Shown: positions 8,356-26,215 of the stretch, in pieces | How the letters are laid out: each line of letters opens with the position of its first letter | Numbering within the stretch: the stretch's first letter is position 1 | IMG/VR virus record: IMGVR_UViG_3300026078_000023 | Coordinates: 1-64,000 of that record | Length of the DNA stretch: 64,000 nucleotides | Origin: a virus | Reading direction: 5' to 3' (one strand) | Translations under genes and position numbers: made by a program | Notes under the pieces: generated by a model | The model's database searches: none | What the model was told of the DNA's origin: nothing | What the model saw: the letters and a program-made list of their open reading frames with translations, nothing else

Positions 8356-9053
8356 CTGACCCCAATGTACTTGTGGACCTGGACGGACAGGTAGTAACCG
8401 CGGCTCATGCACCACGCGAGGCAGCGCGCCGTGGCGGCCGGGTGCTGGGACAGGGGTTGCAGCCACACCGGGGTGCCCGGCTGGTGCCAGCCGCGCGCGA
8501 GCAGCTCCTCGAGGTCGGCCAGGTGGCGCTCGGTCGACGTCGGGTGCTTGATCTCGTCGGCCCTGGCCACCACCTCCTCGAGGACCTCGAGGCCGCCGGC
8601 CTGGCGGATCTTCGGGCTGAGCGTCACCCAGGTCCCCGGGGCCACGCGGAGCGGGCTCGTCCCGCTGGTCTCCACCTGCACCGCGAACCCGTCGTCCTGG
8701 AGCAGGCGGGAGATCGGGCGCAGGTCGTGGTCGGCCGGCTCGCCGCCCGTCAGGACCACCAGGCGCGCGCCGCCGGCCACCCGCCGCACCTCCGCGGCGA
8801 GCTCGGCCGCCGAGAGCCTGGCGTGCGTCGGGGCGTCGGACGCCTTCTTGACCAGGCTCGAGAGCGGGACCAGGTCGGCCTCGTCGGTCCTCCAGGTGTG
8901 CTTCGTGTCGCAGAAGGCGCAGCCGACGCGGCAGCCCTGGAGGCGGACGAACACCGCCGGCCTGCCGGCGTTGGTGGCCTCGCCCTGGACGGTCGCGAAC
9001 ACCTCGTTGACGAGGTACTCGGCCGGGCCTACCGGAAGAACGCAGCCCGGCAC
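8352..9053 (-). CDS. queE: 7-carboxy-7-deazaguanine synthase (radical SAM)
   Basis: NEVFATVQGE, FVRLQGCRVGCAFCDTK, LTGGEP, VETSGT, SPK, LSVQVHKY. Confidence 0.95.
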   Translation of the reverse strand: MPGCVLPVGPAEYLVNEVFATVQGEATNAGRPAVFVRLQGCRVGCAFCDTKHTWRTDEADLVPLSSLVKKASDAPTHARLSAAELAAEVRRVAGGARLVVLTGGEPADHDLRPISRLLQDDGFAVQVETSGTSPLRVAPGTWVTLSPKIRQAGGLEVLEEVVARADEIKHPTSTERHLADLEELLARGWHQPGTPVWLQPLSQHPAATARCLAWCMSRGYYLSVQVHKYIGVR

Positions 9054-9448
9054 TTGCGGGTCTCCTCGACGACCACGGCCTGCAGGACGACGCCCGTGCC
9101 GCGCAGCTGCTGGGGCCCCACGACCTCCACCAGGTACTGGGCCACGTTCTCGGCCGTCGGGTTGAACGGGACGACGACGACGGTCTCGTCCAGATTAGTG
9201 AGGTGCTCGCGCAACGGGTCGTCGCCCCACACCAGGAACCGGTGATCCCAGTGGTCCTCGAGCCACTGGCAGAGCGCCGTCTTCACCACCGAGAAGTCGA
9301 GCACGCGCCCGACCTCGTCGAGGATCGCCGAGCCCACCGTGAAGCGGACGCGGTAGTTGTGCCCGTGCAGGTTGCGGCACTTGCCCTCGTGCCCGACCAC
9401 GCGGTGGCCGACCGAGATGTCGTGGTAGCGCTCGATCGCGTACCCCAT
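9029..9448 (-). CDS. queD: 6-carboxytetrahydropterin synthase
   Basis: GHRVVGHEGKCRNLHGHNY, DF, WDHRFL, NPTAEN, EET; ATG at 9448. Confidence 0.95.
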   Translation of the reverse strand: MGYAIERYHDISVGHRVVGHEGKCRNLHGHNYRVRFTVGSAILDEVGRVLDFSVVKTALCQWLEDHWDHRFLVWGDDPLREHLTNLDETVVVVPFNPTAENVAQYLVEVVGPQQLRGTGVVLQAVVVEETRKCRAAFFR

Positions 9449-10110
9449 CACCTGCCCCCGTTGACGATGGTCATGAACTCGGCCCTGGCCTCCGGCTTGT
9501 TGAGCATCACCCCGCGGAGCACGCTGGTGGTCATCTCCGTCTCGTTGTCGCAGACGCCGCGCCAGCTGGTGCACATGTGCCCGGCGCGCACCAGGACCGC
9601 CAGGCCGCGCGGCTCGATGAGCCGCTCGAGGAGGTCGGCGAGCTGGACGGTGGCCTCCTCCTGGATCTGCGGGCGGGCCATCACCCAGGCCGCCAGGCGG
9701 GCGAACTTCGACAGGCCGATCACCCGCTCGCCGGGGACCACGCCGAACCAGGCCCGGCCGACGATGGGGACCAGGTGGTGAGAGCACATGGACCTGACCG
9801 ACACCGGGCCCACCGCGTAGAGCTCGTCGAGCTTCCTGGCGTTCGGGAAATCGGTCACCTTCGGCTGCGGCTCGTACCGCCCGCGCATGGCCTCCCTGAC
9901 CAGCATCTTGGCCACCCGGCGGGGCGTGTCCTCGGTGTTGTGGTCCCGCCCGATGACCAGGGCGTCGAGCAGGCCCCGCACGGCGACCTCCACGCCGGCC
10001 TGCAGCCGGTCGAGGTCGCCGTCCACCAGGTGGGCGGCGATGCTGTCGTTCGCCCCGCACGGGGCGCCGGCCTCGGCCAGGCGCCCGCGGAGCTCGTCGG
10101 CGAACTTCAC
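9448..10110 (-). CDS. folE: GTP cyclohydrolase I
   Basis: DTPRRVAK, SMCSHHLVP, GLSKFARL, RPQIQEE, HMCTSWRG, TTS. Confidence 0.95.
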   Translation of the reverse strand: MKFADELRGRLAEAGAPCGANDSIAAHLVDGDLDRLQAGVEVAVRGLLDALVIGRDHNTEDTPRRVAKMLVREAMRGRYEPQPKVTDFPNARKLDELYAVGPVSVRSMCSHHLVPIVGRAWFGVVPGERVIGLSKFARLAAWVMARPQIQEEATVQLADLLERLIEPRGLAVLVRAGHMCTSWRGVCDNETEMTTSVLRGVMLNKPEARAEFMTIVNGGR

Positions 10111-10775
10111 GCTGCGTACGCCAGCGGGTCAATCCCCCCCGCGCGCTCGAAGGCCTCCAGGCGCTCGCGGCACGAGCCGCACTTCCCGCAGGCCAGCTGC
10201 CCGCCCTCGTAGCAGGTCCAGGTGCTGGCGAACGGGACGCCGATCTCAAGCCCGCGGGCGACGATCTGGACCTTGGTCATTTCGGAGAACGGCGCCAGGA
10301 GGGCCATGTTCTCCTTGCGGTGCCCGATGGTCCCGAGGCGGAGCGCCTTCTCGAGGCTGTTCACGTATTCGGGCCGGCAGTCCGGGTAGATGAAGTGGTC
10401 GCCGGCGTGGACGCCGAGCGCGACCGCGTCGCACATCTCCGAGCAGGCGACGCCCCAGGCGATGGACAGCATGATCGTGTTCCGGTTGGGGACGACCGTC
10501 TGCCGCATGGTCTCGGCCTCGTAGTGCCCGTGCGGGACGGCGACGGCCGCATCCGTGAGCGCCGATCCCTTGAGCAGCGCCCCCAGCCACGACACGTCCA
10601 CCACCTGGTGGGGCATCTTCAGCGCGCGCGCGATCGCCGCGGCCGCCACGAGCTCGCGCTTGTGGCGCTGGCCGTAATCGAACGAGAGGGCTGACAGCTG
10701 GTGCCCCTCCCCGGTCAGGTGGTAGGCGAGCGTTGCGCTGTCGGCGCCGCCCGAGAGAATCACCATGGTCTTCAT
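10107..10775 (-). CDS. queC: 7-cyano-7-deazaguanine synthase
   Basis: SGGADS, FDYGQRH, VPNRN, YPDCR, TWTCY, CGKCGSCRER. Confidence 0.97.
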   Translation of the reverse strand: MKTMVILSGGADSATLAYHLTGEGHQLSALSFDYGQRHKRELVAAAAIARALKMPHQVVDVSWLGALLKGSALTDAAVAVPHGHYEAETMRQTVVPNRNTIMLSIAWGVACSEMCDAVALGVHAGDHFIYPDCRPEYVNSLEKALRLGTIGHRKENMALLAPFSEMTKVQIVARGLEIGVPFASTWTCYEGGQLACGKCGSCRERLEAFERAGGIDPLAYAA

Positions 10776-11259
10776 CGCGTCGTCCCCCTCTTAATTGCCG
10801 AGTCTAAACCCGTCGGCACCACGCCGTGGTTCCTCTTGAGCCAGTGCCGCTGCCAGCCGATGCCCCGCCCGGGGGTGTCCATGGCGCGGTTCAGCCACAG
10901 GAGGCCCGGGACGGCCTCGCGCAGGACGTCCGCGTAGGCCACGGGTCCGTAGAACACCACCAGGCCGGCGTCGACCAGGCCGAGCGCACGCGCCTGAGCG
11001 CGCACGCGGTCGAGGGTGACGGTGCCGCCCCCCCCCCCATGACCACGTCGTAGCGCCGGATGCGGTCTGTGCACCGGATCAGGCCGTATTTCGCGGACAG
11101 GATGAACACGCGGCCCTGCGGCGCCACCGACTTCGCCCACGCGAGCGACATGGTGAACATCGACCCCCGGTAGAGCTGCCACGCCGGCACCGGAGCCGGG
11201 CCAGGGAGCTTCTTCTTCCCGCAGGCCAGGACCACCGACACCGGCGCACCCTCAGGCAC
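10772..11259 (-). pseudogene. DUF6884/YaaA-like gene frameshifted at a G11 tract (11028-11038); possibly phase-variable
   Basis: 5' frame has VVLACGKKK, LYRGSMF, ILSAKYGLI, RYDVVM. A second frame continues GTVTL...GRGIGWQRHWL and its TGA overlaps the queC ATG. G12 or G9 would fuse them (about 162 aa). Confidence 0.75.
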
Positions 11260-12091
11260 GCCGCTCGTCCTCGTACCCGGCGAGCAGGAGCGTCAAGACG
11301 TCCTCGGACCCGGCCGCATTGAACATGAGGGTGCCGAGGTTGCTCGAGATCTGATCCGACAGGCGGACGGCGCTCCGCGCGCTGAGCGCGCGGGCCAGGC
11401 ACCGTTGCCCCGGCTGCCAGGCGGCCTCCTTGGCCAGGGCGCGCGGGTCGACGCCGTAGGATTCGATCGCGTCGTGCAGGGCCGCCGGGACCTTCTTCGC
11501 GAAGGTCTCCTTCTTGAACTGTCGGACGCGCCCGCGCCCGAGGTACAGGGTCAGGACGCAGTAGCGGGGGACGTTGTCCCACGTCGAGCTGTCGCACATG
11601 TACGGGCGGTAGTGCTTGAGGAACTCGACGTCGGTGAACCCCAGCCAGTGGACCCGGCGCTTGCCGACGTGCTTCATGATCCCGTTCACGAAGCCGCGGT
11701 TCCCTGGCGTCCCGACGAGCCCGCCCACGCCGACGACGTCGCTGGTCCGGTAGTAGTCCTCGAGGACCGACAGGTCCTCGCCGCGCGTGAAGATGGGGAC
11801 CGGCTTGAACCCGCGCTTGAGCATGAGCTCGTAGTTGCGGAGCGTCCCCTTCGGGTCGCCGACGACGTCGAGGGCGAAGTATCGCCAGGGCGGGAACGGC
11901 ATGCCCTCGATGAACCGGCAGTAGTCGTCGACGGCGATCTTCTTGCCGGCCTTCCAGGCGGTGAAGGCCCCCGAATCGAGGAGGAACCTGACCTTCTCTC
12001 GGTTGGCGGCGACCAACTCGGTCACCGCCTTGGTCATGTACGGGTAGGCGACCAGCAGGTTGAGGAGCGGGGCTGAATCCCGCTGGCTCAA
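11252..12091 (-). CDS. dpdA: DpdA-like DNA 7-deazaguanine transglycosylase (TGT fold)
   Basis: FLLDSGAFTAW, ALDVVGDP, PVPIF, GVGGLV, VHWLGFT, CDSSTW; adjacent to preQ0 synthesis genes. Confidence 0.85.
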   Translation of the reverse strand: MSQRDSAPLLNLLVAYPYMTKAVTELVAANREKVRFLLDSGAFTAWKAGKKIAVDDYCRFIEGMPFPPWRYFALDVVGDPKGTLRNYELMLKRGFKPVPIFTRGEDLSVLEDYYRTSDVVGVGGLVGTPGNRGFVNGIMKHVGKRRVHWLGFTDVEFLKHYRPYMCDSSTWDNVPRYCVLTLYLGRGRVRQFKKETFAKKVPAALHDAIESYGVDPRALAKEAAWQPGQRCLARALSARSAVRLSDQISSNLGTLMFNAAGSEDVLTLLLAGYEDERRA

Positions 12092-12735
12092 CCGACCCGC
12101 ACCTTCGGGAATTTCGCGACCGCCGCCTCGACCGCCTTCAGGACCTTGGCCTTGGCCGACTGGGGGCAGAACACGACGACCCGGGCGAGGATGCCGTCCG
12201 TGTTCGAACCGTGGCCCCGGATCGCCGTGATGTCGCTGTCCCAGCCGCGCGCCAGCGCCGCGGCGTCGTCCGCGCTCCAGCCGACCGCCAGCAGGGCGTC
12301 GTCCCCGCCCTTGGCGATCCCGGCCAGCATCGGACCCAGGACCGAGTCATCCCAGCCGCCGAGCTCGACCAGGCGGTTGTCGGCGAGCAGGTACGCCTCC
12401 GCCTCCTCTTCGCTGTCGAAGGCCATCCCGACCACGACCGGGATCTTCCACTCACCGTCAGGGTCGACGACGATCCCGCGGGGGACCTTACCCGGCGTCT
12501 CGGACTTGATGAGCTCGACGGCCTCCTTGCGGCCGTGGCCGGCGGCGATCCGGCCGGTGGCGGCGTCCTCGAGCGGCGGGGCCCGGAACCCCCACCGGCG
12601 GATGCTGGCCATGAGGGCGGGGACGTCGTGGAGCTTCGGGTTGCGCCTGGCCGGCTTGATGTCCGGAAGGCGCTTGTACTCGATCCTGGCCTGCTGGTCA
12701 GCCGCCGGAGCGGCCGCGGTCTTCGCCTTCGCCAT
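12088..12735 (-). CDS. ParB/Srx-like N-terminal domain protein
   Basis: RNPKLHD, SIRRWGF, IAAGHGR.EA, YLLADNRL; ATG at 12735. Confidence 0.8.
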   Translation of the reverse strand: MAKAKTAAAPAADQQARIEYKRLPDIKPARRNPKLHDVPALMASIRRWGFRAPPLEDAATGRIAAGHGRKEAVELIKSETPGKVPRGIVVDPDGEWKIPVVVGMAFDSEEEAEAYLLADNRLVELGGWDDSVLGPMLAGIAKGGDDALLAVGWSADDAAALARGWDSDITAIRGHGSNTDGILARVVVFCPQSAKAKVLKAVEAAVAKFPKVRVG

Positions 12736-13009
12736 GGGATGAGACGGTATCACGACCTGACAGCTTCCCGCCGGTTCGGGCGGTGAACAGCACCGCGCCT
12801 CGTTCCGGAACATTCGCGATCGCCATCGAGACGTCGTAGTACCCGCCTTTCGCCGACTCCTGAACCTGAAACGTCAGCCGCCCACCTCCCTCGAGGTAGA
12901 TCTCCACGTCCTGGAGCGGCGCGCCTCCGGCGGACCGGCCGCCCGAGTGCAGGTCGACGCTGACGATCACCTGACCGTTCAAGATGTTCGAGACCTCGCG
13001 GCTGGTCAC
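12698..13009 (-). CDS. hypothetical protein
   Basis: GTG start overlapping the upstream TGA. Confidence 0.5.
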   Translation of the reverse strand: MTSREVSNILNGQVIVSVDLHSGGRSAGGAPLQDVEIYLEGGGRLTFQVQESAKGGYYDVSMAIANVPERGAVLFTARTGGKLSGRDTVSSHGEGEDRGRSGG

Positions 13010-13335
13010 GTCGCCCTCGCCACGCGCACGGCCAGGTGGTACAGGCGATGGTGACCGAAGTCGCCGACGTCGCACTCGCTGGCGTGTTTCCCGCGGATGT
13101 CGAGGCGCGCGTCGACCAGCTCGCCGGCCACGAGCTCGCTCCCGCTGACCTTCACGTCTTCCGCGCTGTTCACCCGGACGTGGACCCAGTATTCACCGTC
13201 GGTGGTGCGGACCACGTCGACGTCGCCGCCCGGGAAGGCGATCCGGACGTGCTCCGGCTCGGGGTTGCGCTTGTCTCCGCGCAGGCGGATCCCCTGGACC
13301 ACGTCACCCATGTGCTCGATCTTCAGCGTCTTCAT
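13006..13335 (-). CDS. hypothetical protein
   Basis: MKTLKIEH start with AGGAG RBS. Confidence 0.65.
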   Translation of the reverse strand: MKTLKIEHMGDVVQGIRLRGDKRNPEPEHVRIAFPGGDVDVVRTTDGEYWVHVRVNSAEDVKVSGSELVAGELVDARLDIRGKHASECDVGDFGHHRLYHLAVRVARAT

Positions 13336-25619: not shown

Positions 25620-26215
25620 CACGTCCCCTCTCCTTCGTGGTCGATGCACCACCGGCAGTCGCACGGGACACCCCGGGGCCGGCGCGGCGGGTTGCTGTCG
25701 GAGTGCGGCCAGGAGAGTTGCCACCGCTCGGCGGCCTCGGCCGCCCGCACGCCGCGCGCCACGCAGCAGCAGGCGCCGCCGGACGGGCCCGGGCGGATCG
25801 GGCAGACCTTCGCCCCGCAACCCGAGACCGCCCCCCCCAGCGCAGCCAGGGCCGCCAGGAGCGCTATCGGGTGGGCCGGCTCGGCGGCGTTCGCCACGGC
25901 GAGCAGGGTGGCGGCGTGGCACCGGTCCGGCTGGCCTTCCGGGGGCAGGGGGCACCAGCAGGCCAGGTTGTAGCCGCGGAGGTGGACCACCGCGGCCCCG
26001 CGCCGCAGGTACGCCTGCGGGGTGTCCATCGTCAACCAGTGCCGGTGGGCGGACCACGCCTTGCGCAGGTCGCCCTGCCCCGCCGGCCGGAACGGGTTCC
26101 CCCACCTGGTGGTCCGGTCGACTTTGAGAGCCGGCAGGCCGTTCGTCATGCGGCTCGTGCGCTGCATGTCGGCCCCGCGGGTGCGGCGCAGCTGGAGCCG
26201 GACCGGCCTAACCAC
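25619..26215 (-). CDS. DUF4326-like protein with a Cys-rich C-terminal extension
   Basis: VDRTTRWGNPF, LRGYNLACWCPL, CHAATLL. Confidence 0.7.
   Translation of the reverse strand: MVRPVRLQLRRTRGADMQRTSRMTNGLPALKVDRTTRWGNPFRPAGQGDLRKAWSAHRHWLTMDTPQAYLRRGAAVVHLRGYNLACWCPLPPEGQPDRCHAATLLAVANAAEPAHPIALLAALAALGGAVSGCGAKVCPIRPGPSGGACCCVARGVRAAEAAERWQLSWPHSDSNPPRRPRGVPCDCRWCIDHEGEGT

Follow-up and report, generated by a model that had tools for sequence, protein, structure and literature searches.

A frame break at a lineage-specific G11 tract in a minimal DpdC-like DUF6884 gene of a phage 7-deazaguanine operon

RESULTS

Organization of the operon

The window that we analyzed is the 64,000-nucleotide stretch that opens the 93,289-bp virus record IMGVR_UViG_3300026078_000023, and its minus strand carries a series of tightly overlapping genes in the order ParB-like, dpdA, DUF6884, queC, folE, queD, and queE. 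The gene for the DpdA-like DNA transglycosylase (11252..12091, minus strand) was recognized through PHROG 887/7068, with no Pfam match, and adjoins the DUF6884 gene directly. Its upstream neighbor (12088..12813, minus strand) is ParB-like by PHROG only and gave no Pfam DndB match; its product is a possible substitute for DpdB, the DndB-family ATPase of bacterial systems. The ParB-like gene holds the same position as gp1 of the phage Rosebush, overlaps the start of dpdA as that gene does, and encodes a weakly similar protein (27% identity over 130 aa). In an open reading frame that lies across its 5' end (12698-13075, minus strand), the coding signal ends at about 12812, at the called start of the ParB-like gene, and the frame stays open for 111 nt more; the alternatives are a ParB-like start located further downstream and a further change of frame.

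Downstream of the DUF6884 gene, and likewise on the minus strand, are queC (10107..10775), which matches PF06508 over its full length and has its own GAGGGGG ribosome-binding site, folE, encoding GTP cyclohydrolase I (9448..10110), queD, encoding a PTPS protein (9029..9439), and queE, encoding a radical SAM protein (8352..9053). The last gene of the operon (7060-8466, minus strand) encodes a protein that matches the Peptidase_Mx zinc metallopeptidase family at residues 183 to 264 and the C-terminal domain of Fe/Mn superoxide dismutase at residues 370 to 457, an odd partner for queE. A first-pass annotation of this DNA had described a frameshifted DUF6884/YaaA-like gene between dpdA and queC, and both the family and the position are supported by our analysis.

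The frame break and the G11 tract

The DUF6884 gene is divided between two reading frames. Its N-terminal half (11039..11259, minus strand; here termed frame A) could start at GTG 11259, overlapping the dpdA stop, or at GTG 11241, which is more likely to be used on the grounds that a GAGGG site precedes it and that the N termini of relatives agree with it. Frame A reads through CGKKK, LYRGSMF, and ILSAKYGLI up to a run of 11 G residues (11028..11038, minus strand), the first of which completes an ATG codon; the run encodes the glycines of a conserved [ML]-G-x-x-G-[SAC] loop. Past the tract, translation is out of frame as far as a premature stop (10891..10893, minus strand), giving a predicted product of 74 native and 48 out-of-frame residues. 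The C-terminal half (10772..11027, minus strand; frame B, -1 with respect to frame A) contains GIGWQRHWL, and its TGA stop (10774-10772) shares an ATGA with the queC start codon, ATG (10775-10773). The phase of third-position GC flips exactly at the tract, and frame B contains no further stops and keeps a high GC3. The gene is therefore not a single uninterrupted open reading frame, either here or in a second assembly, both of which are broken at G11. The two frames are joined by a tract of G9 or G12, the read-through equivalent to G9 (P0003) being 161 aa long, where a restored frame of about 162 aa had been anticipated. In these respects, namely, the motifs of the upstream frame, the tail in a different frame with its stop over the queC start, and the tract lengths that restore the gene, the first-pass description of the locus proved correct in every detail that could be checked. 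It had further suggested that slippage could alter translational coupling to queC; since queC has a strong and separate ribosome-binding site, any such polarity is probably mild and the effect on queC small.

A GC hairpin with a perfect 10-bp stem and a UCAG loop (10984-11007, minus strand) begins 20 nt past the tract and contains the GTG from which gene callers start a 77-aa fragment; the local fold is no better than that of shuffled sequences.

G11 had been noted as the longest homopolymer of the window, and it is also the longest of the entire record. Across the 93,289 bp, G/C runs of 6, 7, 8, and 11 nt number 42, 10, 2, and 1, respectively, so that this tract is the only one longer than 8 nt in 93 kb, and extrapolation from the fall-off of about 0.2 per added base gives an expectation of about 0.03 runs of at least 11 nt. 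Dinucleotide shuffles yield long runs freely (mean of 3.6 G9 windows), indicating that the real genome is depleted of long runs and that G11 stands out against this background. Codon use reveals the same genome-wide avoidance of G runs: GGG-GGG accounts for 10 of the 242 Gly-Gly pairs, and GGC-GGG is used 64 times versus 15 for GGG-GGC. At 71% GC, a codon-usage frameshift scan was too noisy for breaks to be counted genome-wide, and coding phase was checked at each long run instead. The two runs of 8 nt (25831-25838 of the window and 73428-73435 of the genome) lie where coding phase is continuous and genes are unbroken. None of the 12 G/C runs of 7 to 8 nt breaks a gene, each being in frame or at a gene boundary or ribosome-binding site; the first-pass annotation had named in-frame examples in queC, baseplate J, and DUF4326.

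Family assignment and comparison with DpdC

The read-through protein matches DUF6884 (PF21818) over positions 3 to 135 of 135 at 53.5 bits, against a cutoff of 30, and the N-terminal half alone scores 47.1 bits. According to the authors of Pfam, DUF6884 proteins adopt a YaaA-like fold, contain CxxxK and LSAxxG motifs, and have a cleft that likely binds DNA and flips bases (PMC11701544); both motifs are present in frame A, as C13-G-K-K-K17 and L54-S-A-K-Y-G59. The fold was examined on an AlphaFold model of the nearest intact relative (P0004) in place of the window protein (pLDDT of 89.5 and pTM of 0.84). YaaA (PDB 5CAJ) was the top and only credible structural match to this model (probability of 1.00, E value of 2e-3, TMq of 0.47), indicating the YaaA-like alpha/beta fold in this relative. 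In the model, the conserved loop joins a strand to a helix as an ordered coil (pLDDT of >95). No PDB entry was retrieved with a sequence profile.

The first-pass annotation had noted that bacterial DpdC has a YaaA-like domain. A genome-mining study lists the DpdC domain as DUF6884 (PMC11888242), and the core residues of the phage proteins are common to a genuine DpdC. As a reference, we used the DpdC of a Spirillospora dpd island, encoded beside a DndB-family DpdB and FolE2 and carrying CANRK, CSAGYGL, and VGQEDSV. Past a 29-residue insertion, all of the invariant columns of the phage proteins line up with it (hhalign probability, 91%); the columns that are invariant when it is included are C, K, A, Y, A, S, A, G, L, and Y. 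The PADLOC DpdC model was matched only at positions 53 to 106 of 312, with an E value of 1e-4, and thus not at full length. With half the size of DpdC, a match to some 55 residues of the DpdC model, and a different neighbor, the predicted product of the phage gene is best classified, from its sequence, as a minimal DpdC-like DUF6884 protein and not as DpdC.

Relatives of the DUF6884 gene

The nearest protein, P0004, is intact, 155 aa long, and 65% identical to the read-through; its loop reads IGAQGS, and its gene has no G tract. All six IMG/VR loci with a relative (L002 to L007) have the DUF6884 gene directly beside queC, as do the metagenome contigs L020 to L022, L028, L033, and L041, often together with dpdA, folE, and queE. 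Examples in or beside DpdA/QueCDE/FolE clusters on uncultured contigs are L002:3946-4443, L003:3973-4413, and L021:1250-1660. Among cultured phages, Acinetobacter phage HD01 carries a DUF6884 gene, HD01_00030 (L101:2788-3246), at the head of a queE-queC-queD-folE-dpdA cluster.

Each of the 15 queC-linked relatives is a single open reading frame, and their loop, Y-D-x-x-[ML]-G-x-x-G-[SAC]-[IV], shows no length variation, with its two glycines being more than 90% conserved. It is exactly this loop that the tract encodes, the two variable positions, usually Q-P, being glycines here; consequently, a G9 protein would have the loop length of the family, and a G12 protein would have one additional glycine. 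Within the DUF6884 gene, no G/C run longer than 6 nt was present at any of 96 related loci. By these comparisons, the tract is specific to this lineage, and the conservation in homologous phages that had been put forward as a check on the first-pass proposal was not borne out. No close relatives in which tract conservation could be followed were found in IMG/VR, either by protein or by a pattern of exact flanks around a run of variable length, and alignment-based scans reached at most 44% identity in IMG/VR and metagenomes and at most 40% in genome contigs. A search with a terminase fragment for host assignment returned no match.

A search for fused or longer relatives found none. Separately, gene 64 of Streptomyces phage Ponzi (L102:4365-5852) encodes a 495-aa hypothetical protein with a DUF6884-like segment 37% identical to the L003 protein; to judge from this segment, fused forms of DUF6884 exist in cultured phages.

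DISCUSSION

What the assembled sequence itself shows is the tract and the broken frame, the family, the operon, and relatives that are intact; the first question that follows is whether the break is present in the DNA. We infer that it probably is and that G11 is the majority allele. Exact look-ups found the 77-aa call that starts at GTG 11005, just past the tract, on both the Logan/ENA contig (93,284 bp) and the JGI contigs (93,289 bp); an in-frame assembly would give a call of about 155 aa, and the second assembly must therefore be broken too. A word-seeded search of 5.8 billion representatives (about 15 billion proteins) returned no intact near-identical protein. Moreover, the integrity of genes at the 12 other long G/C runs shows that this is not an assembly ridden with homopolymer errors, which argues against an unpolished long-read consensus. 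It nevertheless has to be considered that the true tract is G12 or, with less likelihood, G9, that the gene is intact, and that the consensus dropped a single G. Metagenome-derived virus records can contain such errors, the tract is the single longest run of the genome, the remainder of the gene looks fully functional, and G12 requires just a one-base undercall, which might be systematic given that the two assemblies may share reads. We consider such an artifact unlikely, although by no means negligible, since the same truncated call occurs in two assemblies of differing length, no run of 7 to 8 nt was miscalled, and G12 would lengthen a loop that is invariant in 15 relatives, so that the simplest correction is not typical of the family. 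The intact state of the downstream half (no stops, high GC3, and 65% identity of the read-through to P0004) indicates that the break is either recent or apparent and not the product of old decay.

The explanation that we prefer, and to which we would give about an even chance, is that the locus holds a genuine slippage variant of an unstable, lineage-specific tract, an incidental and most likely recent and reversible loss. Under this explanation, the gene would encode a DUF6884 protein of about 155 to 161 aa, a minimal relative of the N-terminal catalytic core of bacterial DpdC that is built into a phage 7-deazaguanine DNA-modification operon, and the codons at the two variable positions of the Met-Gly-x-x-Gly loop would, in this lineage, have become glycine codons, thereby creating a long G run. 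Runs of the length of G11 slip readily in replication, and in-frame G12 or G9 variants would therefore be expected to coexist at some frequency with a dominant genotype that, in the sampled population, would be G11 and out of frame. RNA polymerase can also slip at G runs; the gene would be off, with at most some leakage when the ribosome or RNA polymerase occasionally slips by -1.

The first-pass annotation went further and proposed that the tract may be an evolved phase-variable switch, a contingency locus at which slippage toggles a DpdC-like tailoring enzyme, dividing the progeny between two 7-deazaguanine modifications (dPreQ0 and dADG, for instance) as a hedge against both ordinary and modification-dependent restriction. 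A long intragenic poly-G tract in a DNA-modification gene whose product has core residues in common with DpdC is suggestive in this respect, and there are precedents in the hypermutable polyG tracts of Campylobacter phage genes (Sorensen et al. 2021, Cell Rep 35:109214, as cited in PMC10877375) and in phase-variable bacterial methyltransferases (PMC4889913). We regard the proposal as improbable on present evidence: the tract is absent from P0004, with its IGAQGS loop, and from all 96 related loci, it is the only one of its kind in 93 kb, the Rosebush homologue goes with negligible dADG, and the regions matched by mycobacteriophage homologues have no annotated Que genes. A single nonconserved tract in a genome that otherwise avoids runs is more likely to be an accident than a device. 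Still more remote, and in our estimation very improbable, is programmed recoding, by which a full-length protein would be made through -1 frameshifting on G GGG GGG or through the addition of a G by RNA polymerase. The downstream frame is indeed -1, the run formally fits the X XXY YYZ heptamer, and some phage frameshifts function without stimulators (PMC5009743); set against this, folding is unremarkable on the downstream and upstream sides of the tract (z scores of -0.98 and -0.46, respectively), the sole clean hairpin begins as far as 20 nt past it, and every relative encodes one open reading frame, which leaves nothing conserved to program. The frameshift itself is probably an ordinary slippage allele, on the explanation that we prefer, or possibly an error.

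As for the chemistry, bacterial DpdC converts preQ0 in DNA to ADG, as established in Salmonella Montevideo (PMC10164549), and for a DpdC-like protein one would first think of a comparable reaction on modified DNA. By this analogy, the phage protein might catalyze the conversion of dPreQ0 to dADG on DNA, but we consider this doubtful. The cluster of Rosebush (ParB-like, DpdA, QueC, QueD, QueE, and FolE) is the counterpart of the operon described here, and a DUF6884 homologue with 30% identity, gp8 (L100:6038-6508), is encoded 4 kb from the Que cluster on the opposite strand, after the terminase gene; yet the DNA of this phage is reported to contain dPreQ0 at 28% of G and only 9 dADG per million nucleotides (PMC6884629). 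Close homologues also occur in many mycobacteriophage records in which the matched regions have no annotated Que genes, the neighborhood inspected being that of Cheetobro only. The negligible dADG of Rosebush in the presence of gp8 and these Que-free regions both speak against the reaction, and the dPreQ0/dADG toggle is further weakened by the half-size protein and the 55-residue match to the DpdC model. Alternative candidate roles are accessory DNA handling or base flipping on behalf of DpdA and action on abasic sites, YfjM having been recovered on abasic lesions (PMC11701544).

Of more interest than the frameshift, in our view, is the recurrence of small DUF6884 proteins with DpdC core residues in or beside phage 7-deazaguanine clusters. 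A search by term of the two principal phage deazaguanine surveys (PMC6884629 and PMC10516641) brought up nothing on a DUF6884 or YaaA-like protein, and the entries given there as "DUF" or "unknown function" are other proteins; within that compass, these mini-DpdC-like genes are apparently recurrent, undiscussed members of such clusters. Their function could add a step to the phage pathways, with nitrile hydration to dADG, assistance to DpdA in base flipping, and the handling of abasic intermediates as candidates, and a naturally broken allele beside intact relatives provides a ready comparison. Were the contingency reading to be true, one population would produce virions with two 7-deazaguanine chemistries, the first phase-variable hypermodification of viral DNA.

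Four known systems invite comparison. Fletchervirus phages of Campylobacter reportedly possess several conserved polyG tracts, in receptor-binding genes, that have been shown to vary; the present locus resembles them in having an intragenic poly-G tract in a phage gene with in-frame and out-of-frame variants, the former being expected here, and differs in that a single, nonconserved tract lies in a modification gene. With DUF6884 proteins such as Bacillus subtilis YfjM (PF21818) and with Escherichia coli YaaA (PF03883; 5CAJ), the predicted protein shares the full-length Pfam match, both motifs, and the modeled fold, whereas the gene is here part of a 7-deazaguanine operon and has its frame interrupted by a homopolymer. 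Rosebush gp8 and HD01_00030 are encoded, as in our virus, beside or near ParB-like/DpdA/QueCDE/FolE clusters, in these cases of cultured phages, but both are intact and without a G tract, and Rosebush DNA contains dPreQ0 with negligible dADG. Bacterial DpdC, at some 310 to 320 aa, is about twice as long as the 161-aa phage protein, which lacks the C-terminal extension, and it has the DndB-family DpdB as its neighbor in place of a protein that is ParB-like by PHROG. The two nevertheless have in common the C-x-x-x-K and [LC]-S-A-x-Y-G-L motifs, an A..Y.G block, the [MV]-G-Q-x-x-S loop, and a gene that adjoins dpdA.
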